Below, in pieces: positions 16-54,591 of a DNA stretch of 64,000 nt. Under the pieces are notes generated by a model. The model had not been told where the DNA came from. It saw only the letters and a list, made by a program, of their open reading frames with translations, and ran no database searches. Where the stretch lies: the NCBI GenBank assembly GCA_037305845.1, contig CP147778.1, positions 32,001 to 96,000 on the forward strand, in the 5' to 3' direction. This DNA comes from Candidatus Freyarchaeum deiterrae. GTDB lineage: Archaea; Asgardarchaeota; Jordiarchaeia; Jordiarchaeales; Jordiarchaeaceae. Each line of letters opens with the position of its first letter. Position 1 is the stretch's first letter. A program made the position numbers and the translations under genes.

Positions 16-866
16 CTTGCAAAAGCAGTTCCTCAGTAACGAGGATTGAAAGATACTAAAACTGTAAATAAAACAACCATATTCCTAGTATCTTGCAAAA
101 GCAGTTCCTCAGTAACGAGGATTGAAAGAAATCAGGTACGCCGCCTTAACCACTTCCCAGGATCTTGCAAAAGCAGTTCCTCAGTAACGAGGATTGAAAG
201 CATCAGTGGATCCACTGAACAAGTCGTTGGTTATAGCTTGCAAAAGCAGTTCCTCAGTAACGAGGATTGAAAGCTACAGAAAATACTGGAGTACTTCCCC
301 GAGATCATGAACTTGCAAAAGCAGTTCCTCAGTAACGAGGATTGAAAGAGTATCACCAGAACTCTAAGCGTTACTGCGAAGTGGCTTGCAAAAGCAGTTC
401 CTCAGTAACGAGGATTGAAAGTTTCATAAGGGTGAGGTTTTCGATGCTTTGTACATTTCTTGCAAAAGCAGTTCCTCAGTAACGAGGATTGAAAGCGAAC
501 TCCAAGGCGTTTGATGTCGGCTCAAGCCTCGGACTTGCAAAAGCAGTTCCTCAGTAACGAGGATTGAAAGCAAGAATCCGCAGAATCAAGCCAAACATCC
601 CTCGGAACTTGCAAAAGCAGTTCCTCAGTAACGAGGATTGAAAGTTAATATCATCAATCTTATCAACAATTTTAATTTTACTTGCAAAAGCAGTTCCTCA
701 GTAACGAGGATTGAAAGAAATAATTAATACTAGGTATAGGATTATTATTTAATGCTTGCAAAAGCAGTTCCTCAGTAACGAGGATTGAAAGGTACTGCAC
801 CACTGTAATTCCATGCCGATGTAGTAGACCTTGCAAAAGCAGTTCCGCAGTAACGAGGATTGAAAG
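16..866 (+). CRISPR. CRISPR array 1 (12 repeats in window, left end truncated)
   Basis: 37-bp repeat CTTGCAAAAGCAGTTCCTCAGTAACGAGGATTGAAAG at 16, 92, 164, 237, 312, 385, 459, 534, 608, 681, 755, 830; 35-39 nt spacers; last repeat has a T>G variant (trailer end); 3' ATTGAAAG handle gives + orientation. Confidence 0.98.
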
Positions 867-1154: not shown

Positions 1155-3179
1155 ATGCAATCCAGCATCACCCCTGAACACATAATTCTTGGTGCTTTCC
1201 TTCATGATTTAGGCAAGGTAATCACTAATTACCTTAATGAGCATCCTCATTTTAAAGAGATTATAAATAGGTATAGTGGGGTAAAATATAAGCACGCGCT
1301 CATAGGTGCAGACCTTTTAAGAGAGTATGGTTTTCCAGATTCCGTAATTTCTGTTGTAGTTAATCATCATGAAATTATTGATCAGCATTTAGCTTTACCT
1401 AATGAAATATGCAACGTTATTAAAGCAGCAGATCATCTTGATGCTAGTCACAGAGAGAGAATTGAATCTGATACTATTAAGGGGCGACTAATAAGTAGCG
1501 CTGAAGCAATAAATATGAGTATAGTGACTGTGCATAACCGCGATGTTATGGAGTTTTTAGATAAGATGCTTAGGGAATTAGGAGAAGTTTTAAAGAGTAA
1601 TTTCGATAAAAGCATTAGCCTTGTTGATGCTATGATGAGAGAGATAGCTATTCATCTAAGATCTGATCAATCTGATCCATACATATCACTTTATGCTCAT
1701 TCAAAATTTGTAGCAGCTTTAACGAGCTTAAAAATCCAAGACTCGAACTGTGTTCCGTATTTGGTACTGGTGAAAACTAGAATAGAAGATATGGTTAATT
1801 ATGCTACAATCGATGTCTTTGAATATCTTGCTGGACTTTCTTTATATTCCTATTTTGGATTACTTGGAGTCATGTCTTTAATTCTAAGAAGGAACCATTT
1901 GCATCCTGATATTCATATAGTTTCAGAGTCTTCCACAGAGCTTATGGCTATTATTCCAAAAAATATTTTAAAAGAATTTTTAGAAGAATTACAAAAATTA
2001 GCGAACGATTTAAACTGTAATATAGATATAGAAATGGGAGCTATAGATCAGGGTAAATACAAGTCAGAAATTGTGGATACTCTTAAACCACAATACAAGG
2101 TGATGTTACTAGCAAATACTTCTACATGCAATATTTGTCACACTCCGATAAGCGATACAAGATTAATTACTGAATTAAAACGAGGTTTTAAAAAACTAAT
2201 AGTATGCGAATATTGCATTCGAATAATTAACATAAATAGATTGTTAGCGAAAGGTAAAATGTATAGTCTAGTTGAAGGCTGTGAAGGGCTAATACTATAT
2301 CCCAAATTAAACATATGCGTTATAAATCACAATAATCAGGGGTACGCTTTAGTTACAAGAACATTCAATCCTAATTTGGTAGACACTTTAGATGCGCCTA
2401 TAATTGATATATATGTTAACGATTTTAGAAAAGATATTAGATTAATTGGTGCGATCTCTTTTGCAAAGTGTGTGAATAGTATTAAAGAGCAGGAGAAATT
2501 ACATGAACTTTTATCATTCTATCAATTTGCGCCATACTTTCTTTCTAAGATTTTAAATGAATCAGATACGCATTCATTAGAAGTAACTTCAAGTTATGGA
2601 GTTTTCCAGACTAAGTATCTTAGTGAAGTATCTAAGTTACTTAGTAAAATCTATACCGATGAACTAAATCAAACAACATTAAGTATAGTTAAAATGGGAA
2701 CCCCAGGACTTTCTTATCAAAAATTGAAAACACTTGTCTCCAAGGTTGATAGAATTCCAAACGCGGTTTTGGCTATTCATAATGATCTTAATGTATTAAC
2801 ATTAGGCGATATAGAGGTTATCTCTATGGTAAAGTCTAGGTTGGGTTATTATGATGTGAAAGAACTTTGTAGAAGGCTATTACGAACAAGAGAATTTATT
2901 GAAGGCTATCTTAACGCAATTGAAACCGGAGATATCGTTGAAAAATATTATTTAAAATCAGAGATACTTCTTAAAATTAGTGAGATGTGTGTTGAAGAAA
3001 AAGAAGGCTCAAAGGAGAACATGGATTGGATATTTGATATCAAAGTATATCCTGCAGAAGAGGTCAATGGTTCTATAAATATGGATACTCTCTCTGAGTT
3101 ATTCGAAGATGTAACTGTCATTAAAGCCATAGTTAAAATGTTATATCTTGAAGATTTTATAATGGGTGTCCTAGCATGA
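1155..3179 (+). CDS. cas10: Short divergent Cas10 (HD nuclease intact, Palm GGDD absent), type III-F-like
   Basis: LHDLGK, H, HH and AADHL HD motifs; ISLYAHSK motif; CNIC...CEYC Zn finger; no GGDD; heads a RAMP operon. Confidence 0.85.
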   Translation: MQSSITPEHIILGAFLHDLGKVITNYLNEHPHFKEIINRYSGVKYKHALIGADLLREYGFPDSVISVVVNHHEIIDQHLALPNEICNVIKAADHLDASHRERIESDTIKGRLISSAEAINMSIVTVHNRDVMEFLDKMLRELGEVLKSNFDKSISLVDAMMREIAIHLRSDQSDPYISLYAHSKFVAALTSLKIQDSNCVPYLVLVKTRIEDMVNYATIDVFEYLAGLSLYSYFGLLGVMSLILRRNHLHPDIHIVSESSTELMAIIPKNILKEFLEELQKLANDLNCNIDIEMGAIDQGKYKSEIVDTLKPQYKVMLLANTSTCNICHTPISDTRLITELKRGFKKLIVCEYCIRIININRLLAKGKMYSLVEGCEGLILYPKLNICVINHNNQGYALVTRTFNPNLVDTLDAPIIDIYVNDFRKDIRLIGAISFAKCVNSIKEQEKLHELLSFYQFAPYFLSKILNESDTHSLEVTSSYGVFQTKYLSEVSKLLSKIYTDELNQTTLSIVKMGTPGLSYQKLKTLVSKVDRIPNAVLAIHNDLNVLTLGDIEVISMVKSRLGYYDVKELCRRLLRTREFIEGYLNAIETGDIVEKYYLKSEILLKISEMCVEEKEGSKENMDWIFDIKVYPAEEVNGSINMDTLSELFEDVTVIKAIVKMLYLEDFIMGVLA

Positions 3180-3538
3180 ACCAGAATTTTCCCTCTTTAG
3201 TTAATTTTTGCGAATTCGTAAGAAAGTTGGAACTTGATAAAGCAGCTGAAATTGTTGAAAAGGCAGCAAAAGAACTAAACAGAATCCAAGGTGTAACTCC
3301 CGCATCGTTATCGAAATTAGGAGTATTAATGAACAGAGAGGTACATGATAAAGTAGATATTGCTTTATTAAAAAGCGAGATAATGGACTTGAACCTATCT
3401 ATGATCTCAAAGGCTCTTGCTGAGGCAATGGAACAAGCTGGCTTTGAACCACAACTTATAAATAAACTTAGGAGGCTTGTTCAAGCCTTAGTAAACTTTT
3501 ATAAATATTATATTGGAGATAAAGAAGGGGTGATATGA
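3176..3538 (+). CDS. csm2: Type III small subunit (Csm2/Cas11-like)
   Basis: 120 aa helical protein between cas10 and csm3; C-terminal LVQALVNFYKYY resembles the Csm2 tail; ATGA overlap with cas10. Confidence 0.7.
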   Translation: MNQNFPSLVNFCEFVRKLELDKAAEIVEKAAKELNRIQGVTPASLSKLGVLMNREVHDKVDIALLKSEIMDLNLSMISKALAEAMEQAGFEPQLINKLRRLVQALVNFYKYYIGDKEGVI

Positions 3539-4465
3539 ATGGGATTTCTCTTATTAGTAGTATCGGGGAAAACCAATGTTGATGGAATAACGATAGGATC
3601 TACAAGAGGAGATCCTCAGGCTCGCTTAGATTTAAAGACAGCGTTTAAGCCACATCCGAAAGTTCAGGGGATTCGCAAGGAAATACCTTACATCCCTGCA
3701 TCTTCATGGATCGGTGTTATGAGACATTTACTCGAAAAATATTATAATTTACCAGCGCAAACGCCACGAATCAGTAGAAGGCCAAACGATACAATCGTTG
3801 CACCAATTCATGAATGTGAAACTAAAGATGAGGTTTTAAAATGTCCTGTCTGTAAAATCTTTGTGAGACGTGAAGTTGTTGCATGGTTTGGTGATATGGA
3901 ACCCTTTGGTTCCTCATATATGGTTAACAAAGGAGCTATGGGCGGCGAGTACATAATAGACTCTGAAACCAACAAAGAAATCGTAAAGGTATTCATTAAA
4001 GATGAGGTAATTATACCACGAGATGCTGAAAGCGTCAGTATACCTAAGCAAATCGCAAAATCTAAACTAGCGTTAACTAGCAGTGGCAATGAAGTAAAAG
4101 GAGAAGAACTTGTGAAAAAAGGTTTCAAATTAGAGCCGATACCCCGACAGGTTCAAGTTGTAAGTGGTATATTCAAGTTTGATACAAAATTTGCTATGGA
4201 TAAACTTCTCTTCGATGATCTTAAGACCTTCTTCATAGGATTAGGTCTCGTAGAGGATCGTTTTGTGGGTCGCAGAGGATCCCGTGGATATGGAAGGATA
4301 GAGTTTGATGATCTTACATTTAAGTTGCGAACAAAAGAATTCTATGAGGGCAAAGGAGAAGAAATAACAATAAAAATACCTCACAAGAAACCTAGGGATA
4401 TAATCGCTAACTGGAAAAATATTGGGGAAACCTATGAGCAAGCTATTCCTAGTGCCTCAGAGTGA
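3539..4465 (+). CDS. csm3: Cas7-group RAMP, Csm3-like
   Basis: ITIG...LD (catalytic Asp position), PYIPASSWIG, HEC...CPVC, G-loop GRRGSRGYG. Confidence 0.9.
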   Translation: MGFLLLVVSGKTNVDGITIGSTRGDPQARLDLKTAFKPHPKVQGIRKEIPYIPASSWIGVMRHLLEKYYNLPAQTPRISRRPNDTIVAPIHECETKDEVLKCPVCKIFVRREVVAWFGDMEPFGSSYMVNKGAMGGEYIIDSETNKEIVKVFIKDEVIIPRDAESVSIPKQIAKSKLALTSSGNEVKGEELVKKGFKLEPIPRQVQVVSGIFKFDTKFAMDKLLFDDLKTFFIGLGLVEDRFVGRRGSRGYGRIEFDDLTFKLRTKEFYEGKGEEITIKIPHKKPRDIIANWKNIGETYEQAIPSASE

Positions 4466-4484
4466 AGTAAATAATATAAAATGA

Positions 4485-5306
4485 GTGGTAATAGATATGT
4501 CGGTACCTCAAAATGTACTAGTAGAACTTGAGTTTACTTCACCGGTGTTTTTTCAAAGAAGTTGGCATGAAAGACCTTGGCGTATTCCTAGTGACTATAT
4601 TGTAAGAGCATTAGTATATTCATATGCATTATTACATAATGAGCCCAAGGAATTTTTGGATACCATTAATAAAGATTTAATTAGAATATCCTCTCTTTTA
4701 ATATTTCATAAGAACAACTTGTATGTTCCAATTTCTGGAATACGTGGATACAGACCGATTGATGGTAGTGATGTTATAGATTCGATGGATATTATGGGAA
4801 CTATCTCTAAAGTTCGTATCCCAAGAATTGAAGAAGCTGAACCTACTCCCTACGAAGAATATGTACTAGAAACATCAAAATACAAATGGGGTTTAATAAT
4901 TTCTTCCATGGATAACAAGCTTACAGAAAAGATTCTTCCAACTCTTAAAGTACTTGGAGACCTAGGAATTGGTGCAAAAAAGACCAAGGGAGGAGGAAGA
5001 TTTGACTTGCTATCTGTCCGACCACTTAAAGATTTTAATTTAGATGTCCACTGGAATGGATCAGGCATACTTATCTCGAGATACATACCATCAGTAAGTA
5101 AGAACTTACCCACTAAAATAAAAACCTTATATCAAGAAAGAGTTCAAATACGTTACAGTGAAAAAATTGTATATGAGTTCATGTCTATAGCCGAAGGCTC
5201 TGAATTAGAAATAGCAGACACAGGAAAGGTAGAGATCGTAAAAAATGACTTGGAATATGATACTCCATTATATTTCAGACCCTTATTATTGAGTTATGAG
5301 ACTTAA
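4485..5306 (+). CDS. csm4: Cas5-group RAMP, Csm4-like
   Basis: IPSD motif, LIRISSL, G-loop GIGAKKTKGGGRF, EGS motif. Confidence 0.8.
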   Translation: MVIDMSVPQNVLVELEFTSPVFFQRSWHERPWRIPSDYIVRALVYSYALLHNEPKEFLDTINKDLIRISSLLIFHKNNLYVPISGIRGYRPIDGSDVIDSMDIMGTISKVRIPRIEEAEPTPYEEYVLETSKYKWGLIISSMDNKLTEKILPTLKVLGDLGIGAKKTKGGGRFDLLSVRPLKDFNLDVHWNGSGILISRYIPSVSKNLPTKIKTLYQERVQIRYSEKIVYEFMSIAEGSELEIADTGKVEIVKNDLEYDTPLYFRPLLLSYET

Positions 5307-5320: not shown

Positions 5321-5511
5321 TTTTTGGAAAGAATCTCATCAGTAAGAGTACTGAAAGATATCGGAAATGTAGGTAGTGTAGCTTACTGAAACGTTTCTTG
5401 TAAAAGCAGTTCTCCAGTAACGAGGATTGAAAGTAATGAAATACTAAGATCGTGAAACCTAAATCCCAAAAAATCTTGCAAAAGAAGTTCCGCAGTAACG
5501 CGGATTGAAAG
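5321..5511 (+). CRISPR. Degenerate mini-array (3 repeats)
   Basis: Repeats at 5321 (very degenerate), 5397 and 5475 with 39 and 41 nt spacers. Confidence 0.85.
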
Positions 5512-5654
5512 TTAATTTTTTTGTCTGTTTTTGGAGTCACCTTAATGAAGTGTTAGCTTAAGTAGTCCTTAGCGGTAGGAATGTAACGACTAAGCTTTTT
5601 TAGAAATTATAGTAAGAGGAGATTTTTGTGTGGTTGGGCTTAGGTGGCTTTGAG

Positions 5655-6092
5655 TTACTGGTCGGTTTTTTCGTAGAATTTTTTTATGAATCTTTGGCTT
5701 GGGTTGTGGACGCTTTTCGCGTTTTCTAGGGCTTCTTTGGCGTCTTTTTCGTCGAAGAGTTCGCTTGCCGGTTTTCCGTCTTTTTCGATGCCGTAGACGC
5801 TGGGTATTCTTTTTAGTGAGAGTTCTCTTGAAATCTGCCTTATTTTTGGTATCTCTTTTTTGAACCATTCGGGGAAACTGTTGCTATAGTATTCCAGGAT
5901 GTCGCCTACGTCGTGTACTTTGGGATATTCCACTCCTAGTACTCTTAGACACGCTTTTAGGGATAGTTCCACACATTCTTGGGAGTATCTTACAGTGTCG
6001 GGGTAGTCGCCTCTTCCGAGTGCGGACTCGGCATCAGTGAGTCTGCTTTTCGCCCGCCGGAGGAAGTCTATGGCTATGCTGTCGGTTCTCAG
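5655..6092 (-). CDS. HEPN domain protein (partner of upstream MNT), probable CTG start
   Basis: Frame extends upstream of the ORF track as RTDSIAIDFLRRAKSRLTDAESALGRGDYPDTVRYSQECVELSLKA; HDV and RIPSVY motifs; CTGA overlaps the MNT stop. Confidence 0.85.
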   Translation of the reverse strand: MRTDSIAIDFLRRAKSRLTDAESALGRGDYPDTVRYSQECVELSLKACLRVLGVEYPKVHDVGDILEYYSNSFPEWFKKEIPKIRQISRELSLKRIPSVYGIEKDGKPASELFDEKDAKEALENAKSVHNPSQRFIKKFYEKTDQ

Positions 6093-6829
6093 AGCTCGAT
6101 CACCTCACCTTCTTTCACATGGTCTTTGAGCTGCCAGTACCAGTCTCCTTTTGGGGTGATGCTTTTTTTGGCCCCCATCTCCTCCAGTTTTTTCTTTAGC
6201 TCTGAGAGCACGTTTTTCATAAAATTGTTTCTGTCGAATATTATCAAGGAGTCTGTGACCATGTCGAGGTAGAATGGTTGGTTCACACGGGCTTCCTCGG
6301 GCGTTAGTAAAACTGTATTTACGTTGGGGAACGCCCCGCTACTTTTCCATAGGGAGAGCTTAGTGGCGGTCAGCTCCTCGAAGAGGCATGAGGCATCTCT
6401 GACTCGTTCACTGTAGCTTTCGGGTAAGCCTTTTACCACTGTAAGGAAGTCTAGGTCGCTGTTCTTTCCGGCTTCACCGCGCGCAACCGAGCCGAAGAGC
6501 ACAACGGAGAAGACCCGACCATTGTACTTCTTGAAAAACTCGCTTACGAATCGCCGAATAAGGGGAATATACTCCCTCTGCCTTATCCGGCTCATCCAAC
6601 TATCGTCCACTACGCCGAGAACAATCATCATAGGATCCAACGCGCTGTATACCCCTCTGCCCCTCCTTTCGATATAACCTGCCTTGTGGAGTCGGGAGAG
6701 TAGAACTCTCAAATTTTGCCCCTCAAGGTTTAGCTCCTCTTTGAGCTTCTCTATAGTAAAGGGTTCGCTGCCGTAGTTGAGATATATCTTCGAGTAAAAC
6801 TGGCCGAGCCACGCAGGAACCCACATCAT
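6089..6829 (-). CDS. wHTH-fused minimal nucleotidyltransferase (MNT)
   Basis: N-terminal wHTH (LLSRLHKAGYIERRGRGVY); LFGSVARGE...SDLD motif. Confidence 0.9.
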   Translation of the reverse strand: MMWVPAWLGQFYSKIYLNYGSEPFTIEKLKEELNLEGQNLRVLLSRLHKAGYIERRGRGVYSALDPMMIVLGVVDDSWMSRIRQREYIPLIRRFVSEFFKKYNGRVFSVVLFGSVARGEAGKNSDLDFLTVVKGLPESYSERVRDASCLFEELTATKLSLWKSSGAFPNVNTVLLTPEEARVNQPFYLDMVTDSLIIFDRNNFMKNVLSELKKKLEEMGAKKSITPKGDWYWQLKDHVKEGEVIEL

Positions 6830-7174
6830 ATAATCACCTACTTATTAATAATTACCAAATAGTACACTAATTTAAAAGCCTTGCTCCAAAGTGACAAAAT
6901 AACGTAAAGTAGAATGATTCAACCAAGAAACACATGGCTATCTCTAAGCCCGGCCAGCTTAGTTACATCTAGTTAATTTCAACGTTTGTGGTTCAACATA
7001 TTTATCACAATCGAGCAGTTTTAAGGATACGCGTCTAATACTCTGGAATTTTAAGGGATAAACAAGAAAAAATAAAAACAAGAACGATGCCAAAATAAGA
7101 GAGAAGATATTCCTACAACTAGTTTTACGATACATTATGGAGGGAGAAGGAACATAATCGACCTCTGGATAGAA

Positions 7175-7987
7175 ATGGTCGCCACAGACTCCGGAAGAGT
7201 GAACCCCTTCACCGGACACCTCGTAAGAGGAGCCCTGCTGAACCTAATCAAAAACGCCGACCCCGACCTAGCCCAAAAACTCCACGAACCCCACCAGCAG
7301 AGACCCTACAGCGTCACACCCGCCGCACCCGTAGCCCACCAAAGAAACATACGCGAAAACCTCTGGTGGATACAGCCCGGAGAACACGTAAGATTCCACG
7401 CCGGATTCCTACAAGACCACATAGGAGAAAAAGCCTTCCAAAAAATCCTAGAAGGCAGGCCGGAAATAAAACTCGCAGAAACCCCCTTCACACCCGTGAG
7501 AATAGAACTCAAGAGGACAACGTACGAAGAACTGATGAAAACCGCCCAACCAGAACCCGTAATAACCATTAGGTTCCACTCACCCACCCAGCTCCCAATA
7601 ATAGGAAGAGACTTCCCCCTATTATTCCCAGACCCAAGATACGTGTACGGAAACCTAGCCCGACTATGGAACCAAAACGCACCACCACAAGTACAGGTAG
7701 ACACCCAGCAGCTACACGACTGGATAGAAAAAAACGTCTACATACGCAAATACCAACTACAAACCAGAGAGATAGACGTAGGAAAACAGGTAAAACTCGC
7801 AGGATTCACAGGAACCCTAGAATACCACCTAAACAGCACAGATGAATACGCACCTTGGATAAACATACTCACACGGTACGCAACCACAGCCAACACCGGA
7901 GCCAAAAGAACCACCGGAATGGGAGCCACACAAAAAATAGAACACACCAAACAAAACCAAAAACAAACACCAAAAGAAAATTCCTAA
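7175..7987 (+). CDS. cas6: CRISPR pre-crRNA endoribonuclease Cas6
   Basis: LHE...RPYSV, F-SPT, FPDP, GFTG and C-terminal TGAKRTTGMG G-loop; frame stays open a few codons upstream (possible ATA start at 7154). Confidence 0.92.
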   Translation: MVATDSGRVNPFTGHLVRGALLNLIKNADPDLAQKLHEPHQQRPYSVTPAAPVAHQRNIRENLWWIQPGEHVRFHAGFLQDHIGEKAFQKILEGRPEIKLAETPFTPVRIELKRTTYEELMKTAQPEPVITIRFHSPTQLPIIGRDFPLLFPDPRYVYGNLARLWNQNAPPQVQVDTQQLHDWIEKNVYIRKYQLQTREIDVGKQVKLAGFTGTLEYHLNSTDEYAPWINILTRYATTANTGAKRTTGMGATQKIEHTKQNQKQTPKENS

Positions 7988-8053
7988 ACGTCAAACCAAA
8001 CTACAAAGAGACCAGAACAAAATGGCCAAGCAAAACAAGAAGAACTATTTAAA

Positions 8054-8126
8054 ATGTTCGAGTGAACCCTCTCAAAAGAAGCCTTTATGAGACTCCAAAA
8101 CAAAAAATAGATAATAAAATATAACC
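8054..8126 (+). promoter_or_regulatory. CRISPR leader (homologous to main-array leader)
   Basis: TGTTCGAGTGAA..CAAAAGAAGC.TTTAT...AATATAACC matches 46712-46784. Confidence 0.85.
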
Positions 8127-8238
8127 CTTGCAAAAGAAGTTCCTCAGTAACGAGGATTGAAAGTAGCGTATTGCTCAGTTGTCGGGATCCAAATTGTCGA
8201 ACTTGCAAAAGAAGTTCCTCAGTAACGAGGATTGAAAG
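8127..8238 (+). CRISPR. Mini-array, 2 perfect repeats and 1 spacer
   Basis: Exact A-variant repeats at 8127 and 8202 with a 38-nt spacer. Confidence 0.95.
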
Positions 8239-8312
8239 TGTAAATATGCGACAAATCCATGATGTAATTATATTATAATTTAATAATATTATAAAATTTT
8301 GGATTGAGTCAT

Positions 8313-8750
8313 TTATTCTAAAAATTCTTGAGGAGTAGAAAGATTGAGTTCTGGTATTCTTTCAAAGTGTTTTTTATTTTTAGTTATTAAAATAAGTTTT
8401 GTTATTCTCGCCTGTGCACCTATGAAAACATCTCTTATCTCTAAGGGCGACCCTTTCTTTTCCAACTGTACGTAAATCTCTGATGCCTCAATTGCTGTTT
8501 GTTCATCAAAAGAAAGTATTTGTGTGTGACTGAAAAGAGTGTTTGCTTCGCTCATCGCTTTTTCGGGTTGAGGGCTTAACCTAGTTCCGCGATAAATCTC
8601 AAAAACCGTTACAGCACTCACGTAAGCCGCATATTGTCGTTCATCTATCTTGTTGAATATTTTAACGGCTTCGGGTTGGGGTTTGCGCTTAAGATAATCA
8701 ATAATAACATCTGTATCAAGCATTATTTTTTGGGTTTCCATGTTTTCCAC
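8313..8750 (-). CDS. vapC: VapC/PIN toxin
   Basis: LDTDVIIDYL, TVFEI, RDVFIG, TKNKKHFERI. Confidence 0.92.
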   Translation of the reverse strand: MENMETQKIMLDTDVIIDYLKRKPQPEAVKIFNKIDERQYAAYVSAVTVFEIYRGTRLSPQPEKAMSEANTLFSHTQILSFDEQTAIEASEIYVQLEKKGSPLEIRDVFIGAQARITKLILITKNKKHFERIPELNLSTPQEFLE

Positions 8751-8959
8751 ATCCGTCTAGCATCATCCATAAAGTCCTCTGTACTTTCTATATGCTCCCA
8801 TGCTCCAGCAAGCTCCTTGAGGGAGGGGGATTTGATAAAAACAATTTTACCCTCCTCTTCCTTAACTATCAATTCGTCACCAATTTTCACATCTATCTTT
8901 TTTCGAATCTCTAGAGGAATAGTGATCTGAAATTTTCTTGTTACTTTAACCTTCAACAC
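8723..8959 (-). CDS. AbrB/MazE-family antitoxin
   Basis: VTRKFQITIPLEIRKK...GDEL; overlaps vapC. Confidence 0.9.
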   Translation of the reverse strand: MLKVKVTRKFQITIPLEIRKKIDVKIGDELIVKEEEGKIVFIKSPSLKELAGAWEHIESTEDFMDDARRMWKTWKPKK

Positions 8960-8967
8960 GAGACCTC

Positions 8968-8988
8968 CGTACTACATATAGTAGTACG
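8968..8988. promoter_or_regulatory. Palindromic operator of the vapBC operon
   Basis: Perfect inverted repeat CGTACTAC-N5-GTAGTACG between the TATA-like tract and the antitoxin start. Confidence 0.7.
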
Positions 8989-9192
8989 AATATATAAAAA
9001 CCTGCTTATCAACCCCTACCTAGAAGTCTTAACCATATCTAGCACCCCCAATAAGCTTCAACTTGTAACTACTTTTTCAGTATGAATTTCTTACACTTTG
9101 TTTTCGTTTATTTTGAAAATTTTTGAGCCAGTGTTTAGAGTTATTGCTGTTTTCCATTTATTCATAACTGAACACCACCATTTTTTATTTTA

Positions 9193-9298
9193 TCTGCAAA
9201 AGAAGTTCCTCAGTAACGAGGATTGAGAGAGCGTGAGGAACAAAAATCATGTTAAATATGGCATTCTCAGACTTGTAAAAGTAGTTTCTCAGTAAGAG
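9193..9298 (+). CRISPR. Degenerate mini-array (2 repeats)
   Basis: Near-consensus repeat 9193-9229, 42-nt spacer, truncated repeat from 9272. Confidence 0.85.
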
Positions 9299-9302
9299 GT
9301 GG

Positions 9303-9460
9303 CCATGTTATATTTGAGAGTGGAGTTAGATACTCTCGTGTTCTTCCAAAGCTCACTGAACAGAATCTTACCACCTGCATGAGCCAAACATTCCAAAACA
9401 GACCTCCTACTCCTCCTTCTAAGAACGAGTCTAAAGAGTATACAGAACGCTTTTTGAAGT
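9303..9460 (-). pseudogene. wHTH fragment, paralog of the N-terminus at 17080-17239
   Basis: Translates RRSVLECLAHAGGKILFSELWKNTRVSNSTLKYN versus LRAVLGELALAGGETRFSELWKSTEIS.STLDYN. Confidence 0.7.
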
Positions 9461-9535
9461 GGTTGTGCAGTTCGTGATATGGAAGCTTATCTATATTTTT
9501 ATATGTCTTTGATATATCTTAATATTGGTGTTAGT

Positions 9536-9856
9536 ATGGATGTTACGATAAATCAGATTATGGAAATTCTTTCTGAAGGACCGAAAACTCCTGACGAAAT
9601 TGCTAAAAGGTTAGGGGTTTCATGGGCTACTGCAAATGGTAAGCTTCACCGATTGGTCGGAAGTGGAAAGGCCGACTATATCAGAAAAGGTAGGGTAAAT
9701 GTTTTTTATCTCAAATCGCCTCAGAGCATTAGATTCAATGTACCTCCATGGGTTAACCCCAAAAGCCTTAGCGAATTGGCAGAAGAGCTTGAGGAGTATT
9801 TTGAGGAAGGGATAACCGCAGAAGAAGCTGTTAGAAGGGAGCGTAGAAAATATTGA
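9536..9856 (+). CDS. wHTH antitoxin
   Basis: GPKTPDEIAKRLGVSWATA HTH; overlaps the PIN gene. Confidence 0.8.
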   Translation: MDVTINQIMEILSEGPKTPDEIAKRLGVSWATANGKLHRLVGSGKADYIRKGRVNVFYLKSPQSIRFNVPPWVNPKSLSELAEELEEYFEEGITAEEAVRRERRKY

Positions 9857-10332
9857 AAATCGCGCTTGATACGGGAGTGCTTGTTGTCTCCATTAAGAGG
9901 ATAGGCGAGAAATATCATCAAGAAGCTGTTCAAATCGCAGACCGCATTAAAAATTTTAAAAGCAACTGCGTATCTTCCTCTCTCGTACTTATCGAACTTC
10001 CCGGTGCTCTGGCTTCCTCCACCACAATGCCAATTGAGAAAATATACACAGCAGAAGCCTCAATACAGGAAAACTTTAATCTAGTAATCCTGCCCTTCCA
10101 CCCATATGTTGACACGACTGTGAACCTGATACTTGAATTCCGCGAATTAAAGCGAAGACTAGGTATCGAAGCAGCGGACTTTCACCACTTAGCCACAGCT
10201 ATAGATGAAAGGTGCGAAGCCTTTGTAACGGTGGATGACCACCACCTACTAAAAGGAGAGACAAAAGAAGCCCTAAACAAATACATCAAAATACTAAACC
10301 CGAAGGAAGCCCTCGAAATTTTCAAACAATAA
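9853..10332 (+). CDS. PIN domain toxin
   Basis: IALDTGVLV, LIEL, ADFHHLATA, FVTVD. Confidence 0.88.
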   Translation: MKIALDTGVLVVSIKRIGEKYHQEAVQIADRIKNFKSNCVSSSLVLIELPGALASSTTMPIEKIYTAEASIQENFNLVILPFHPYVDTTVNLILEFRELKRRLGIEAADFHHLATAIDERCEAFVTVDDHHLLKGETKEALNKYIKILNPKEALEIFKQ

Positions 10333-10537
10333 TCCTTCCGTTCTCCCGAATCATAACCCAAAAATGTTTAAAGATTATTCAGCATGTTGAATTTTTACAC
10401 TTGAGATAGGGAGAAAACTGGATCACAGAGACAGAGCCAAAACAAGTTGACAGAGAGCGAGGATTTTCTGTCCAACACCGTTAAACACAGCAAAGCAACC
10501 ATCTTTATCCAAGAAGCGAATCTAAAGTTTTTATGGT

Positions 10538-10763
10538 AGGGAGGACATTCAAAGCTTATGCATGCCAAGAAGAGATTATGAACCAGTAAACTTTGACGGA
10601 GAAACGCTCACGCTCAAGGCTAAAAACGAAAACGCCCTTACCACCAGGTACGCTCTAGCCAATATACTAAGCAGACTGCTGTACAGCAAGGGAGTGCTCG
10701 TCCTGAAGTTCAAACCACTGAAAGGCCAGAACGAAACCCTAACCAACGAGATAGAGCTCCTCA
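10538..10763 (+). pseudogene. Fragment of unknown multi-copy 'gene X', fused to a CRISPR half-repeat
   Basis: Paralog of 14688-15086 up to NEIE.L, then continues as repeat sequence. Confidence 0.8.
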
Positions 10764-10849
10764 GCAACGAGGATTGAAAGCCTAATACTTGGTTCAAGTT
10801 CTAATTGTTGTCTTGCAAAAGCGGGTCCTCAAATAACGAGGATTGAAAG
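10755..10849 (+). CRISPR. Half-repeat, 31-nt spacer and degenerate repeat
   Basis: AGCTCCTCAGCAACGAGGATTGAAAG (to 10780) and a repeat at 10812-10849. Confidence 0.85.
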
Positions 10850-10961
10850 TCAGCAACAATAAATACTTAACTACATAAAGGATGTGTGTAGAGAAGGGGG
10901 TAGAATGAGCTATCACTCGAAAAAAACAAAGCAGTAGCGCAAAAGCCCACTGAGATTCTTC

Positions 10962-11327
10962 ATGGAGGAGATATGGATAAACTCCATGAGCTTTTCTTCA
11001 CCGGATTTTGTTTCACATTTTTCGGGAATCTCTCCTATGAACCATGAGCAGTATATTGAGTTCAACAGAGCGGTTATGGCAGCGTTTCCCGATTTTAGGC
11101 AAACGGTTAAGGATATGATTGTTGAGAGAGATAAAGTTATGCTTTGCATGGTAGGTAGGGATACGCGTACAGGAAATTTTCAGGATATTCCGCCTACTGG
11201 GAAACGGTTTGAAATTACGGGGATGGCTATACGCCGAATAGTAGGTGGCAAAATCATTGAAGAGTGGGCGAATCCTGATCAACTAGGTTTGATGCAGCAA
11301 ATTGGAGCAATTCCGAAACGGCGATAG
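10962..11327 (+). CDS. SnoaL-like ester cyclase (N-terminus apparently disrupted)
   Basis: AFPD, GNFQDIPPTGK, GKIIEEW...DQLGLMQQIG; the expected SLEKNKAVA start lies out of frame near 10912. Confidence 0.75.
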   Translation: MEEIWINSMSFSSPDFVSHFSGISPMNHEQYIEFNRAVMAAFPDFRQTVKDMIVERDKVMLCMVGRDTRTGNFQDIPPTGKRFEITGMAIRRIVGGKIIEEWANPDQLGLMQQIGAIPKRR

Positions 11328-11562
11328 AATATTTAGAGCTTGGTGTTGAAAGGTAGGGTGTTTATTTTTTATTTTTTTAATCTTTGAGGAAATAAGTGTG
11401 TATTCCGATTCGTCTGTTTTGGGGAGAAGTTTTTATACTTCTTTGTGTAACTTTTAGTATGTTTTTAGTGTCTGGCAGGCAAGCTGCGATTCGGGTTAGC
11501 TGTTTCGACTGTTTTAGGGTTTAGTAGTGTCGGCTTCTGTTTTTGGAGCAGTGGTCGTGTTG

Positions 11563-11955
11563 ATGAATATTATTGATAGTGTCAAAGAGCGTTTGGAAAA
11601 GAATGATAATGTTGTCTTCGCCTATGTGTATGGATCCTACGCTAGGGGAAAAGCTACTAGGTTTAGCGACTTGGATATTGCTGTTTTTTTAAGGGACACT
11701 GGTCATGAGGGGTTTAGGGAGCTGCTAGCCGAGTTGCCTGTGGATGCGGATGTTGAGTTCGATGTTAGAGTGTTGAATGATGCTCCTCCGCTCTTCAGAT
11801 ACAATGTTGTCAGGGAGGGAAAACTGTTGTTCGTCAAGGATAAAGGGATTCACGAGACCTTTGTTTACGACACTCTTGTCTCGGCGCTAGAGTTGAGAGA
11901 GGCTCTAACCAGCATGAGGGAGGAGAGGTTGAGGAGGGTTCTTGATGCTCTTTGA
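11563..11955 (+). CDS. MNT antitoxin
   Basis: YVYGSYARG...SDLDIAV. Confidence 0.9.
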   Translation: MNIIDSVKERLEKNDNVVFAYVYGSYARGKATRFSDLDIAVFLRDTGHEGFRELLAELPVDADVEFDVRVLNDAPPLFRYNVVREGKLLFVKDKGIHETFVYDTLVSALELREALTSMREERLRRVLDAL

Positions 11956-12364
11956 AACTGTTGCCGACGCTGTTAAGGTCTTGGAAGAACTCAGGGAGAA
12001 GAGCCTAGAGGAGATAGCTGGAGACACCGTTTTGCTCGGAAGCGTTCTGTGGTATCTTTACGTGACTGTGCAGGGCTGCATAGACATAGCCCTCAAAACA
12101 ATCTCAAAGCTTACTCTCAGAGCACCTGAAAGTTACGGTGACGCGTTCAAAGTTCTCAGAGAAGGAGAACTGATATCGGAAGAGCTAGCCAAAAGCCTTA
12201 TCGCAATGGCCCGTTTTAGACACGTTTTAGCTCATGTATACACCAAGCTTGACTTGGATCTGATATACGATATGTTGCACCACGACATTGAAGAGGTCAA
12301 AGAATTCTTGAAGACTTTAGCCGCGAATCTCCGAGAAAGAAACATAGAGTTAAGCGAATTCTAA
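11942..12364 (+). CDS. HEPN (DUF86) RNase toxin
   Basis: PESYGDAF and the FRHVLAH Rx4H motif. Confidence 0.9.
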   Translation: MMLFETVADAVKVLEELREKSLEEIAGDTVLLGSVLWYLYVTVQGCIDIALKTISKLTLRAPESYGDAFKVLREGELISEELAKSLIAMARFRHVLAHVYTKLDLDLIYDMLHHDIEEVKEFLKTLAANLRERNIELSEF

Positions 12365-12456
12365 CCAGCCAAAACACAGCCGTATATCTTGATCTAAACT
12401 TATTACCGCGATCTAAAAACATAATTATTATGTTTGCGCTGTTTTCGATATCATTG

Positions 12457-12568
12457 TCTGCAAAAGAAGTTCCTAAGCAGCGAGGATTGAAAGTCCAGAA
12501 TCTCGGCTACGCTGCAACTGCGGATCGTTTACTTGTAAAAGAAGTTCCTCAGTAAAGAGAATTGCATC
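12457..12568 (+). CRISPR. Degenerate mini-array (2 repeats)
   Basis: Repeats at 12457 and 12532 with a 38-nt spacer. Confidence 0.85.
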
Positions 12569-12674
12569 AGTATGGTTTACGCGTCCATCGTGCGGATACA
12601 TGAATTCTACCTGATAATATTTTTATGCAGATATGATGTTATTTACTCAGATGCGATTTTGGAGCGTGGTGTAA

Positions 12675-17670: not shown

Positions 17671-18939
17671 TTGAGGCTGGATGAAGTGATTCTTGATATT
17701 AAAACTCCAATATGGACTGGTGACATTGACTCAAAAAGCAATTCGCTTAAATCTACAGGGATTATGGGTTCTATTCGCTGGTGGGTTGAAGCAATCTTGA
17801 GAGGAATGTATAATTTTGCTTGCGATCCCATAGATGACAATCCCCAAAGCCTAACAAAACGTTGCCCAACAACAAAAGAAAATAATCGAGAAATTTCTCA
17901 GTATTGTTCCGCTTGCCTCATTTTCGGAGCAACGGGAATGAGAAAGCTGTTTAGATTGCATATTGAGGGAGGACATGAGATATTTAATGACAGACCAATC
18001 AAGATAATGCCAAAAGGTAGAACTGGAGGATGGTACTTGGGAAGTGGACTTGGTGGAGAAATAAACCTAGATATTATTTCCTTAGACAAGGATTTCGATA
18101 AAAGTCTAATTTCTGTTCCTCTAACTATTACAGCCAAATTGGGTGCAATAGGGGCGAGAACCCAAAATGGCTATGGTATAGTAGAACTCAAGGAATTTCC
18201 AGAAATAAAAATTGAGGATTTCAAAAATTCGGTGGGTAAAATTACAGATACCACAAGACTTGCTAAATTGAAGATTGATGTAAGAAAAGAAGTAAGACAA
18301 GAAAACTGTATATCTTTACCGAATATAAAAGAGATGTTTTTTGCCAAAATCCAATTTGAGGCAGATAATGATTGGTGGAAGGAAGTAGATGGAATAGAGG
18401 AAAGAGGGCAAACGGGAGATAGAGATTATTATGAAGGGTGCGCTAATGATGCAAGAATGCATAAGTGGATAGATTCTGGTTCCGTTCCTATTGTTCCGGC
18501 GATAAAGAATTGGTTAAGGTATGGTTATGGAAAAAGCCTCTGGCAAACGGGAGATCGAAATAAAGACAGAATAATAGATAAATGGCTATTTGGAACTATT
18601 AGAAATGATAAAACCGCCTCTAAAGTCATCATCTCCTGCGCGTACCTTGTGAGTAATAACATATGGGAATTTCGTATCTGGGGATGGATTCCTGAAAATA
18701 GCTTACCAGATGAATTTGATAGAGAAAATTTTTTGGACAGCTTGAATAAAAGTTTAGACGGAAAGGGTTCAGCAAAACTTCCGTGGAAAAATATTTTTGG
18801 TAACGGTACCAAAGAACATAGACTTTCAGTTTGGCGAGAATATAATTCATCGAGAGATACTGTTAAGTCAGGTGAGGAAGGTATTGATAACTATCTTGGA
18901 AGCCTTTTAAGTGGCGGGAGGAAATTCAATGAATCATAA
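17671..18939 (+). CDS. cmr1: Type III-C RAMP Cmr1
   Basis: TPIWTG, GIMGSIRWW, C..CLIFGAT, GAIGARTQNGYG. Confidence 0.92.
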   Translation: MRLDEVILDIKTPIWTGDIDSKSNSLKSTGIMGSIRWWVEAILRGMYNFACDPIDDNPQSLTKRCPTTKENNREISQYCSACLIFGATGMRKLFRLHIEGGHEIFNDRPIKIMPKGRTGGWYLGSGLGGEINLDIISLDKDFDKSLISVPLTITAKLGAIGARTQNGYGIVELKEFPEIKIEDFKNSVGKITDTTRLAKLKIDVRKEVRQENCISLPNIKEMFFAKIQFEADNDWWKEVDGIEERGQTGDRDYYEGCANDARMHKWIDSGSVPIVPAIKNWLRYGYGKSLWQTGDRNKDRIIDKWLFGTIRNDKTASKVIISCAYLVSNNIWEFRIWGWIPENSLPDEFDRENFLDSLNKSLDGKGSAKLPWKNIFGNGTKEHRLSVWREYNSSRDTVKSGEEGIDNYLGSLLSGGRKFNES

Positions 18940-20074
18940 ATACGACTTTTATGCAGCTTTTTATATCAAGGAAAAAGAGGATGTCGATAATCTAACTAAC
19001 GGTTCTGGAAGGTATGATGAACTACGTGATATTTTATCAAGAATAATGATTTTGAGTACAGCGCTAGGGGTAAAAGAAAAGTTCGATGACCGTAAGGGTA
19101 GACCAAACGAAATTAATCCTAAAGATTATGCGAGGGTAGGTGAGGGTAATCATGTCTCAGGTTTAAAGGCTCTTACCCATACTAATGGAAACTTCAATGA
19201 GTATATAGCTTGCAAATTATCTGAACTTGCTCTTTTAGGTATTAATGCACCAATTAACGTTTCTATTCTGCCAATAGGAAGTTGGGTTTTAGAGTTTCCA
19301 ATTACTCTTACTAAGCCTTTCATTTCAAAGGATGACGTTCCATTATATATCATAGATAATCCTATAAAGAAAGACAAGGTCTTTGGTGTACCCTTTACCT
19401 CAGCGATGGCATGGAAGGGGAACCTAAGATGGACTATGATGAAATTTCATTTAGAATCTCATATAAACGAGCCTAATAAATTTGCTGAAATACGCCTCAA
19501 GCATACACTTTTGTTCGGAACAGAAAAAGGAACAGAAGATGTACCAAAGGGATGGGCGAAATATCTAGATAAACTTTGTCCCAATGCAAGGGAAAACTAT
19601 CAAGATAAACTCAAGAAAAAATTTGGAAGGGACGATATACCCAATCTTGCAGGAATGCTTCACTTTTATCCTACTTTTTGGGACAGAATTGATATGGAAG
19701 TTATTAATCCACATGATAGAAAAACCAAAACTGGCAAGAACCCTATATACTTTGAAGCCGTGCCAGAGGGTTCAAAAGGCCTCTTTAGGCTTCTCTATAT
19801 TCCTTTACACTGGACTAATCTGCGAGATGACGAGTTTAAGAAAATGATTTTACAGGATTTAAGAGATGTCGTAGCTGGGCTTAAAGAGATGTTACTTTTC
19901 TATGGCTTTTCAGCAAAGAAGTCCATAGGATATGGAGTAATTGAAGACAGCTTTGACAAAGAGGTAAGTACGCTTGCGTTGAAGGATTTTATCAGAGGTA
20001 CTGAAAAATTTGGGAACCTTGAAGAATTGGAGAACAAAATTGAGAGCTTCGTTAGAGGAAGAGACTATGAGTGA
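18929..20074 (+). CDS. cmr6: Type III-C RAMP Cmr6
   Basis: P..SAMAWKGNLR, VINPHD, NPIYFE, GFSAKKSIGYG. Confidence 0.88.
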   Translation: MNHKYDFYAAFYIKEKEDVDNLTNGSGRYDELRDILSRIMILSTALGVKEKFDDRKGRPNEINPKDYARVGEGNHVSGLKALTHTNGNFNEYIACKLSELALLGINAPINVSILPIGSWVLEFPITLTKPFISKDDVPLYIIDNPIKKDKVFGVPFTSAMAWKGNLRWTMMKFHLESHINEPNKFAEIRLKHTLLFGTEKGTEDVPKGWAKYLDKLCPNARENYQDKLKKKFGRDDIPNLAGMLHFYPTFWDRIDMEVINPHDRKTKTGKNPIYFEAVPEGSKGLFRLLYIPLHWTNLRDDEFKKMILQDLRDVVAGLKEMLLFYGFSAKKSIGYGVIEDSFDKEVSTLALKDFIRGTEKFGNLEELENKIESFVRGRDYE

Positions 20075-22817: not shown

Positions 22818-22834
22818 AAGTTGGGGGTGAAAAT

Positions 22835-23806
22835 ATGAATGAAAATATGCCTAAAACAAAAACCTATTATTTGTTAACCCTTGATCCAGTCCATATTGGA
22901 ATTGGAGGGGCAAGATTAGGAAGGGTAGATTTACCTATAGTTAGAGAACCAGGAACAAATCTGCCAAAAATTCCTGGTACAAGCTTAAGCGGGCCCGCAA
23001 GAGCATATACTGCCATGGCAAGAAATAAATACAAGTGGAAAGATGAAAATGGTGAAGAGTATTACTGCGCAGGTCGTGGTGGTGAGGGAGGCGAAAACCA
23101 CTGTGGCAAAACTAATCCAGCTTGCCCTGTTTGTATTCCTTATGGTTTCTCAAAAGGCTCTGGAAACAGTATGCAGGGATTGGCTCAGCTCTTCGATGCA
23201 CTAATTCTTTTCTTTCCAGTAGCGTCAATGATCGGACCAGTGTGGGTGACCTCGCCTATGGCAATGGGAGGCCTTCTAAATGACAAATTTCAGGCACCTG
23301 AAGACGGTTTCTACCCTTTAGATGAAAATCTCAAAATCAAAAGCAGTTTAAACTTTGGATGGATTATGTTAAAAAAAGTAGAGAGGAATGTGAATAATCC
23401 TACTTTCGAGCTGGACAGCAAAATTCCTGAGATGGTTAGACAGCGTTCCGTTCTAGTTTCTGATAAACTTTTTTCATTTATTGTAAATAGCAACCTTGAG
23501 GTCAGGACTTCTGTAAGTATTGACCCAGCTACTGGAGCTGCAGAAAGCGGAGCACTTTTTACTTATGAGGCGATTCCGAGAGGCGCTATCTTGCGATTTG
23601 AAATAATTTACAGTTCAGGAAAAATTTTCAAAATTGGAGAGCAGGAACTAAAAACAGAGGAGAATGGTGATGTTGACCCTGCGTGGGTTAGAACACAAGT
23701 GGAAAAGGGATTGGCCCTTTTTGAAACATTAGGGATAGGCGGAATGAACACTCGTGGTATGGGAAGAATAAAAGTGCTTAATCTCGAAGAACAAGGAGGT
23801 GCTTAA
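22835..23806 (+). CDS. cmr4: RAMP Cmr4
   Basis: PVHIG...VDLPIVRE, PKIPGTSLSG, GALFTYEAIP, GIGGMNTRGMG. Confidence 0.95.
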   Translation: MNENMPKTKTYYLLTLDPVHIGIGGARLGRVDLPIVREPGTNLPKIPGTSLSGPARAYTAMARNKYKWKDENGEEYYCAGRGGEGGENHCGKTNPACPVCIPYGFSKGSGNSMQGLAQLFDALILFFPVASMIGPVWVTSPMAMGGLLNDKFQAPEDGFYPLDENLKIKSSLNFGWIMLKKVERNVNNPTFELDSKIPEMVRQRSVLVSDKLFSFIVNSNLEVRTSVSIDPATGAAESGALFTYEAIPRGAILRFEIIYSSGKIFKIGEQELKTEENGDVDPAWVRTQVEKGLALFETLGIGGMNTRGMGRIKVLNLEEQGGA

Positions 23807-24221
23807 TATGGGAAAAAATTTGGACAAGCTTTGCGCAGACTTCGGGAATAAGTTAGCTTGTGGGGTTTTCAAAGCATTTAACAATGACGCAGATAAGGCT
23901 GAAAATTTAATTTTAAAAGCATTAGATGTGCTTCAGGAGCAGGGAATTTATGCATTTACACTCTTTTGTGAATCTAGAGGAGACTCCGAAAAGAAAGGGG
24001 CGCAAATATTGGAATCAATTGCAGAAGAACTCCTTAGAGATAAGCTCTCATTTATCGGTAATGGTGATTTGTTGGAAGAAATCAGAAAAGATGGTGGTTT
24101 AGCTTCAGACATTGAAAATATTATTTTTGCTATTCAAGTGTTGGAGAAAACTCTTGTTTATGGTCGTTATCATGCAAAGGCAATGAAAAAACCTAAAATT
24201 ATTGGAGAAAAAACGATATGA
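23799..24221 (+). CDS. cmr5: Small subunit Cmr5/Cas11
   Basis: 140 aa helical protein, LQEQGIYAF, position in the cmr1-6-10-4-5-3 order. Confidence 0.8.
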   Translation: MLNMGKNLDKLCADFGNKLACGVFKAFNNDADKAENLILKALDVLQEQGIYAFTLFCESRGDSEKKGAQILESIAEELLRDKLSFIGNGDLLEEIRKDGGLASDIENIIFAIQVLEKTLVYGRYHAKAMKKPKIIGEKTI

Positions 24222-25114
24222 TTTGGCACTTTTATTCGTGGACATTCCAATTAAAATCACCTCTTCATATTGGCTACCATAAAATAATGCATTTATTTAG
24301 AACAAGACCTTATGTTCCTGGAAGACTCCTCTGGGGCGCTCTAACATCAAAACTAACACCCATACTTGAACTGGATAGTTACCAAAAGATAGGAAACTTT
24401 TTGAAAAAAACGATGCGATTTGGCTATCTTTATATCTATGCCGATAATCAGCTTTTCTTACCCTTTTATAGCGAAAGTGGGCTAAAGTTCGGCAATCTAT
24501 CTAAGAACGAATTTGATAAACGCTTTATTAGTTCTATAGCGTCTGCTCCTATAGATTCAGAATCATTAACTGCCGAAGAAGGTATGCTCCATGAAGTTGA
24601 ATTTATAAATCGGTATACAATCGACAGCGGAAATCCTGTTTTTTTGAAGGGAGTATTCTGGGTAAGAGAGTATCAAGATGGTAATTTGAGTATCACCAAA
24701 GAGGGCGATAGTCTGTTTGTTAGATACAACAGTACCAAGATCGATTTGGATATGCTGGCAAACAGTTTTCAAGTTGGTGGCGAAAGAAAATACGGATTTG
24801 GGTTATTAGAATTAAAGAAACCTGACGAATCTAAAGAAAAAGAATTAAAGAATTTCCCAGGGGAATGGAGCGAAAAAGCTGCAGAGCTATATTTAAAGTT
24901 GAAGAAAAACGATCCAGTTTGGTCTCATGTTTTATACACAAACAACATTGATATTAAAGGTAATATAGAACCGTTGGTAGGCAGAGATTGGGATACAAAA
25001 AAGGGCCCCGGCAAACAGTTAAATACATTCGGCCTATTTTGGTCTCCTGGTTCTATTCTTAACGAAGATAAAATTTTTAAAATCGATGAATCCGGCTTAT
25101 GGGAAGCAATATAG
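24218..25114 (+). CDS. cmr3: Cas5-group RAMP Cmr3-like
   Basis: SPLHIG, YVPGRLLWGAL, VGGERKYGFG, PGS. Confidence 0.8.
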   Translation: MIWHFYSWTFQLKSPLHIGYHKIMHLFRTRPYVPGRLLWGALTSKLTPILELDSYQKIGNFLKKTMRFGYLYIYADNQLFLPFYSESGLKFGNLSKNEFDKRFISSIASAPIDSESLTAEEGMLHEVEFINRYTIDSGNPVFLKGVFWVREYQDGNLSITKEGDSLFVRYNSTKIDLDMLANSFQVGGERKYGFGLLELKKPDESKEKELKNFPGEWSEKAAELYLKLKKNDPVWSHVLYTNNIDIKGNIEPLVGRDWDTKKGPGKQLNTFGLFWSPGSILNEDKIFKIDESGLWEAI

Positions 25115-29839: not shown

Positions 29840-29857
29840 ACTTTTTGTGTTTGTAGA

Positions 29858-54554: not shown

Positions 54555-54591
54555 CTTGCAAAAGAAGTTCCTCAGAAACGAGGATTGCATC
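54555..54591 (+). repeat. Solitary CRISPR repeat with conserved trailer
   Basis: CTTGCAAAAGAAGTTCCTCAGAAACGAGGATTGCATC; trailer is duplicated after 12532. Confidence 0.9.

Follow-up and report, generated by a model that had tools for sequence, protein, structure and literature searches.

Four genes in the genome of Candidatus Freyarchaeum deiterrae seem to encode a minimal type III CRISPR effector without Csm5. They occupy positions 1155-5306 of the analyzed window, that is, the whole stretch of 64,000 nt from position 32,001 to 96,000 of contig CP147778.1. In our reading, to which a probability of roughly two in three is given, the module represents a distinct archaeal lineage, sister to or derived from III-A, with a dead polymerase/cyclase, RNA targeting, and an HD DNase. 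With slightly less confidence, it is considered a type III subtype or variant that has yet to be classified, namely an offshoot of III-A which independently lost Csm5 and cyclic oligoadenylate (cOA) signaling and kept the Cas7 RNase and the HD DNase. The module is real, intact, and rare, and on the features tested it stands outside canonical III-A, III-F, III-H, and IV-C. Its genes are as follows.

1155-3179, + strand: cas10 (Csm1-like), 674 aa; HD residues intact, both Palm catalytic motifs degenerate, zinc finger, C-terminal helical domain kept
3176-3538, + strand: cas11 (Csm2-like small subunit), 120 aa; named by hhalign against III-A Csm2 and by PADLOC Csm2
3539-4465, + strand: cas7 (Csm3-like), 308 aa; D31, zinc site, long thumb insertion
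4485-5306, + strand: cas5 (Csm4-like), 273 aa; named by TIGR01903, PADLOC, and hhalign

The four open reading frames (ORFs) share the + strand and form a tight operon, in which neighbors overlap or are 0–19 nt apart. Their order, cas10-cas11-cas7-cas5, is the III-A order minus csm5. A previous sequence-only reading of this DNA had described a 674-aa Cas10 with HD but without GGDD, a small subunit, one Cas7 with a long insertion, and Cas5, with no csm5, csm6, or cas6 in the operon. This gene set is borne out by the ORFs, the insertion consists of 42 residues at the thumb tip of Cas7, and a cas6 gene is located 1.9 kb downstream of the operon.

A Conserved Archaeal Family

Cas7 has 28 relatives at 43–64% identity, followed by a sharp gap, giving a family of 29 Cas7 clusters. 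The complete cas10-cas11-cas7-cas5 order is found in eight distinct archaeal loci, and seven more are partial. Hosts with names include Bathyarchaeia, Thermoprotei, Desulfurococcaceae, and Archaeoglobaceae metagenome-assembled genomes (MAGs), and RLE63792.1 and MEM1552878.1 are among the family proteins. About 10 full-length relatives were retrieved in a representative search with Cas10; a word search with the same protein returned no match except itself, and the first contig scan of genomes and the viral scan returned none.

The Cas10s of the family share a mean identity of 30%. The ratio of nonsynonymous to synonymous substitutions (dN/dS) is 0.09–0.15 wherever dS could be estimated, and the family stems are long in the Cas7, Cas5, and Cas10 trees (1.0–1.6 substitutions per site). 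A reduced gene set shared despite this divergence, under low dN/dS, is an indication of an old and selected design and not of a decaying III-A operon. The suggestion of the sequence-only reading that the system is highly diverged or a new subtype is therefore supported by the conserved family, the stems, and the lack of a csm5 elsewhere; branches of ordinary length within canonical III-A or III-F were not what the trees returned.

Two family loci differ in layout by the position of arrays. In one (L017:8973-9620), a CRISPR array between cas11 and cas7 splits the operon and a second array lies upstream of cas10, and in the other (L020:45-2034) an array directly precedes cas7.

Absence of Csm5 and cOA Effectors

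The genome is a single contig of 3,576,204 bp with a GC content of 40.7%. Neither the csm5 profile TIGR01899 nor the profile PF09455 of the Csx1 HEPN domain matched anything in it, and control profiles did match; the csm5 that might, according to the sequence-only reading, be encoded elsewhere was thus not found in this one-contig genome. A genome census of repeat-associated mysterious proteins (RAMPs) placed all others in III-C and III-D-like operons. In the family loci, the genes found 3′ of cas5 are unrelated ones or a cas6 in convergent orientation, or else an array follows; no csm5 was seen downstream of cas5 wherever the flank could be read. Similarly, no other RAMP genes were present in the incomplete Archaeoglobaceae MAG. 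Csm5 is known to contact the 3′ part of the duplex of CRISPR RNA (crRNA) and target, and to bring in PNPase and RNase R, which act in maturation (PMC10289348).

Features of the Subunits

The HD residues of Cas10 (H17, D18, H47, H72, D93, D96, and H182) are the same in all 10 homologues compared. On the contrary, GGDD is found in none of 14 family members; in this protein, the residues in the Palm2 DxD and GGDD columns are nonacidic, and the Asp of Palm1 is likewise missing. The Palm regions are heavily remodeled, yet conserved among family members. The zinc finger is formed by C325/C328/C351/C354. Structure prediction, which had been proposed as a check, gave a full-length Csm1 fold: the AlphaFold2 (AF2) model of the 674-aa protein (predicted local distance difference test score 81) aligns with Csm1 over its full length (VIA, Z 23.2, root mean square deviation [rmsd] 5.3, 574 aligned residues, 4-670 against 2-755), and the C-terminal helical domain, aligned to the Csm1 C-terminus, is retained. 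In one family member, known from a single contig (L019:1736-4021), Cas10 and Cas11 share one ORF of 761 aa, which reflects either genuine fusion or loss of a stop codon.

The best structural match of Cas7 is Csm3 of Thermococcus onnurineus (Z 19.2, rmsd 3.5, 236 aligned residues), with which it shares a zinc site. Residue D31, invariant in 26 of 26 sequences, aligns with the Asp of the GGID motif in this Csm3, an Asp replaced by Ala in PDB 6mur. The thumb tip has 42 residues versus about 5 in Csm3, and the respective range within the family is 21–42.

Calls from Pfam, NCBIfam, and PADLOC name the subunits HD/Cas10, Csm2 (weakly, PADLOC E = 0.016), Csm3, and Csm4, all under the curated III-A cut-offs. 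In detail, the NCBIfam scores are 46 for Cas10 as Csm1 (cut-off 170) and 40 for Cas7 as Csm3 (cut-off 90), and Cas5 reaches 54.9 bits with TIGR01903 (cut-off 55).

Placement Relative to Known Subtypes

Two references were assembled for the comparison. For III-H, only two loci were used, namely the type locus of Ca. Argoarchaeum ethanivorans, AEth_01085/01086 (L120), and a Methanogaster relative (L121). The other reference is a clade with the order cas10-cas5-cas11-cas7, which includes G089 and Methanosarcina lacustris MSLAZ_2079, with the T. lettingae prototype left out. We take this clade to be III-F from its gene order, the one that Makarova reportedly gave for III-F in 2020.

In profile comparisons with hhalign, every family subunit was closest to III-A. 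The E values against III-A, III-F, and III-H, respectively, were 2e-23, 3e-5, and 1e-7 for Cas10, 7e-29, 4e-3, and 7e-4 for Cas7, and 3e-19, 0.01, and 5e-5 for Cas5. For Cas11 they were 1e-7 (III-A, probability 94) and 0.09 (III-F), III-H being without a separate gene. When III-A was reduced to depth-matched profiles of two sequences, Cas10 still preferred it (E = 5e-11 to 2e-15). Among 800 sampled archaeal genomes, the next-best matches of Cas7 were III-A csm3 genes at every locus inspected, with csm5 and GGDD present wherever the contig reached them.

The maximum likelihood tree of Cas7 grouped the family with III-A (Shimodaira–Hasegawa-like approximate likelihood ratio test [SH-aLRT] 100), as sister to the sampled Csm3 on a stem of 1.4. 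In the same tree III-F and III-H were grouped, a positive control in agreement with PMC12669027. In the Cas5 trees, the family is located beside or among Csm4.

Several observations weigh against an RNA-targeting offshoot of III-A. The IGG motif preceding the catalytic Asp of Cas7 is lost, and the Asp column is filled also in III-H (two aligned) and in most III-F; D31 is therefore weak as proof of a Cas7 RNase. In approximately unbiased (AU) tests, grouping with III-F or III-H was not rejected, except for Cas5 with III-H (p = 0.03). The best score for Cas5 even belongs to the III-F-constrained tree, and for Cas10 p was 0.22–0.58 across all placements. Moreover, the position of Cas10 changes with the alignment, and one tree joins it to III-H at aLRT 100. 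The phylogeny of Cas10 and Cas7, which the sequence-only reading had called for, thus places Cas7 with III-A but leaves Cas10 shifting, and the link to III-A is carried chiefly by profiles, structure, and gene order. Finally, in two Logan contigs of the same population small deletions split cas10, a different one in each: L004 lacks 2 bp and the other, as inferred from gene coordinates, 1 bp. The sites map to window position 1293 and about 1500-1515, and the deletions are either read errors or inactivating variants.

Alternative Readings

An unlikely alternative is that the same lineage has switched to a mode similar to IV-C, with PAM (protospacer adjacent motif)-flanked double-stranded DNA (dsDNA) bound through the remodeled Cas10, a collateral HD nuclease, and a Cas7 that does not cut RNA. 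The mechanism itself is demonstrated in IV-C, which has the same Cas10-Cas11-Cas7-Cas5 core, an active HD, no GGDD, and borrowed crRNAs (PMC13676074). The heavily remodeled Palm regions, conserved as they are within the family, would be in keeping with such a switch, and two archaeal clusters without a name are among the nearest Atlas feature matches of Cas7. The trees contained no IV-C sequence, so IV-C remains a mechanistic rival. However, PADLOC recognizes Cas7 as Csm3-like (E = 1e-20) rather than Csf2-like (26 residues matched at E = 2e-4), D31 of Cas7 is invariant, and Cas10 has no FTD in its zinc finger and keeps the C-terminal domain missing in archaeal IV-C1. No IV-C structure appeared among the fold matches listed, which speaks neither for nor against this reading.

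It is similarly improbable that the module is a divergent branch already within III-H of the 2025 classification, or a chimera in which a Cas10 of III-H type is combined with Cas11, Cas7, and Cas5 of III-A. III-H is described from "various archaea" with a dead Palm, an active HD, one Cas7, and one Cas5. The family matches III-H Cas10 at a hhalign probability of 94, and both the aLRT of 100 in one tree and the joined Cas10-Cas11 ORF of L019 point in this direction. Nevertheless, there are three effector genes at the type locus, without a separate cas11, the hidden Markov models (HMMs) of the family miss the Cas10 and Cas7 of this locus and match its Cas5 weakly (E = 1e-3), and pairwise Cas10 scores average −0.7 bits to III-H versus 4.2 to III-A. 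The grouping of III-H Cas7 with III-F (only two III-H loci) also argues against it. Identity with III-H was dropped once the type locus had been recovered, with Cas7 and Cas5 near noise level against it and no separate cas11 there.

An ordinary III-A operon in decay or truncation, with a recent loss of csm5 and GGDD, is very improbable and largely refuted by the conservation of the family. The Csm1–4 names in the profile libraries, the listing of III-A for Freyarchaeia (PMC11529989) in a genome where the module has the only HD-bearing Csm1-like gene, and the frameshifted cas10 in two contigs speak for it; against it stand the reduced gene set kept at 30% mean Cas10 identity, a dN/dS near 0.1, and the long stems.

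The kinship implied when the sequence-only reading called the module "III-F-like" does not hold, and membership in III-F has very little probability: despite four genes, one Cas7, a cyclase-dead HD Cas10 of 660–690 aa, and compatible AU tests, the gene order differs from that of the reference, all four subunits are far nearer to III-A, the III-F HMMs built here match none of the family proteins listed, and the hhalign probabilities are 9, 4, and 0.7 for Cas7, Cas5, and Cas11.

Proposed Mode of Action

By analogy with III-A, the module most likely acts as a signaling-free Csm complex without Csm5. A separate Cas6 would cut the transcripts of shared arrays into crRNAs with an 8-nt ATTGAAAG handle, held by Cas5 and Cas10. 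Copies of Cas7 would coat the spacer and Cas11 would occupy the belly, and the complex would bind complementary invader RNA, which D31 of Cas7 may slice at 6-nt steps; target binding would in turn activate the HD single-stranded DNase of Cas10. No cOA would be made, and therefore a Csm6/Csx1 effector would not be needed. The 3′ end of the crRNA, with Csm5 absent, would probably be capped by the terminal Cas7. The enlarged Cas7 thumb is a speculative candidate for a Csm5 substitute, because the thumb segment shrinks in some members. Since the repeats of all arrays in the genome belong to a single family, crRNAs can be used in common. The module may move horizontally and plug into the existing arrays of its hosts.

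If this proves true, a four-protein RNA-sensing Csm complex would exist, and one more convergence on the minimal Cas10(HD)-Cas7-Cas5 design would stand beside III-F, III-H, and IV-C. Reductive routes from type III to types IV and VII have been proposed, and a stable III-A minus csm5 and minus the cyclase would be a natural intermediate. The function of a Csm complex without its capping subunit and immunity from the HD DNase alone would become testable, and a compact candidate for RNA targeting free of collateral RNase would be available. Automated typers would assign the module to III-A, which may explain why the lineage went unnoticed. A description of it was not found in the literature searched; the data files of Makarova 2025, which were not covered, may list it unnamed.

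Repeats Flanking the Module

The following features surround the operon.

1-866, + strand: trailer end of CRISPR array 1; 12 of 65 repeats in the window, leader left of the window
830-866, + strand: terminal repeat of array 1, T18G variant
5322-5511, + strand: degenerate mini-array; two repeats, at 5397 and 5475, and a decayed one near 5322
7175-7987, + strand: cas6, outside the operon; GC content 49%

Bracketing by array 1, whose last base is 866, and by the mini-array was correctly noticed in the sequence-only reading. Array 1, located mostly left of the window, has a 37-nt repeat ending in ATTGAAAG and is the probable source of crRNAs for the module. The spacers of the mini-array and the trailer have no long match in the genome.

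The sequence-only reading had further proposed a repeat-flanked cassette, on the grounds of a variant shared by the repeats at 830 and 5475. The G variant (T18G, TTCCGCAG) is indeed shared, but it also occurs at 57804, in 3 of 239 repeats altogether, and the repeat at 5475 has two further changes absent from 830. Each of the three is the last repeat of its array, a position compatible with recombination at a terminal repeat as the route of insertion. The module has a GC content of 34% versus 43% for long ORFs and was not found in the 40 relatives compared, five of them of the same genus, which fits horizontal acquisition. A similar layout is found in L009, where a mini-array precedes the genes and cas5 is closely followed by the degenerate end of an array. 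On the other hand, similar repeat pairs punctuate the whole island, and the family loci with long flanks include at least four without repeats (L001, L003, L008, and L013). No empty insertion site was identified in five same-genus drafts, where the neighboring toxin-antitoxin and cas6 genes are on other contigs. Insertion of the module through repeats at this site is thus conceivable but rather doubtful, and repeat flanking is not a defining trait of the family.

The last repeat of the mini-array (5475) has a compensated TCCGC/GCGGA stem. The 9 nt that immediately follow the terminal repeat of array 1 (867-875) recur at 1067-1075, 80 nt upstream of cas10. This 9-mer arises in 0.3% of shuffles of the region, and pairing past 9 nt is poor; crRNA-like autorepression is possible.

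Genomic Setting

The cas6 gene at 7175-7987, with its GC content of 49% versus 34% in the module, is likely the crRNA-processing enzyme and would act in trans. Two very similar copies of cas6 exist, one per CRISPR island (window 7175-7987 and genome 2695027-2695842). The window further contains a III-C operon (17671-25114), a I-B operon (26668-32696), cas4, and cas1, and a GGDD-positive III-D-like operon is located at 2.68-2.69 Mb of the genome. The III-C operon is complete (cmr1, cmr6, csx11, cmr4, a small subunit, and a cas5-like gene), as is the I-B operon, and their effector genes have a GC content of 31–37% versus 49–50% for cas1 and cas6. The systems given for Freyarchaeia are I-B, III-A, and III-D (PMC11529989), and the III-C system of the window is not among them. 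Since the genome has no HD-bearing Csm1-like gene other than cas10 of the module, the "III-A" of that list is probably the four-gene module.

Unassigned ORFs in the cas island include one of 302 aa without a family match (25740-26648), one of 299 aa with DUF2797 adjoining cas1 (34839-35738), and one of 491 aa adjoining a HerA-like ATPase (44755-46230). Many degenerate repeat pairs are interleaved with NTase-HEPN and PIN toxin-antitoxin genes at 5397-12570 and 54555-57840. Scans for sigma-70 promoters and terminators remained at chance level, sigma-70 models not suiting an archaeon.

Comparison with Known Systems

A Cas10 large subunit accompanied by Cas5, Cas7, and Cas11 makes the module a type III system. 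With III-A Csm (T. onnurineus PDB 6muu and T. thermophilus HB8 pTT27) it shares the order cas10-csm2-csm3-csm4, subunits nearest to Csm1–4 though scoring under the curated cut-offs, the full-length Csm1 fold, the Asp and zinc site of Csm3, and the HD residues. It differs in the absence of csm5 and csm6/csx1, the two dead Palm sites in place of an active GGDD Palm with a cOA effector, the long stems, and the Cas7 thumb segment of 21–42 residues.

III-H, also reported by Altae-Tran 2023 (PMC10910872), is HD-active, Palm-dead, and distantly related to III-F, and in it a diverged Cas11 replaces the C-terminal domain of Cas10, with Argoarchaeum AEth_01085 as the type locus (PMC12669027). The module resembles it in the active HD, the dead Palm, one Cas7 and one Cas5, cas10 followed by cas7-cas5, and the lack of adaptation genes of its own. 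The III-H type locus (L120:1365-6075) reads cas6-cas10-cas7-cas5 without a separate cas11 and has a Cas11-like C-terminus, whereas the module keeps the C-terminal domain next to a Csm2-like gene, and its homology to AEth_01085/01086 does not exceed that to other subtypes. The Cas7 Asp, nonconserved in III-H by description, is invariant as D31 in the family, a feature that discriminates weakly. The Cas7 of both L120 and L121 keeps an Asp at the catalytic column of Csm3, contrary to this description.

Four genes, one Cas7, and a cyclase-dead HD Cas10 of similar size with an inactive Palm are common to the module and the III-F reference clade, which departs from it in gene order (cas10-cas5-cas11-cas7) and in the sequence family of Cas10, Cas5, Cas11, and Cas7, every subunit being very remote. 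In III-F-type loci of Methanosarcinales (L117, L118, and L123-L125), Cas5 and Cas11 are fused.

The closest look-alike in layout is IV-C, with the same Cas10-Cas11-Cas7-Cas5 core and order, an active HD, no GGDD, and usually no array, so that crRNA is borrowed. Binding of PAM-flanked dsDNA and collateral activity of the HD nuclease were demonstrated for IV-C in 2026 (PMC13676074). Its Cas7 is of the type IV (Csf2) clade, unlike that of the module by PADLOC, and is no longer active as an RNase, and its Cas10 has the FTD motif in the zinc finger and no C-terminal domain in archaeal forms. Lastly, while III-A2 (Makarova 2025) is without Cas11 and has an active cyclase with NucC, and the module is without Csm5 and the cyclase, III-A2 resembles it as a named offshoot of III-A minus one subunit.

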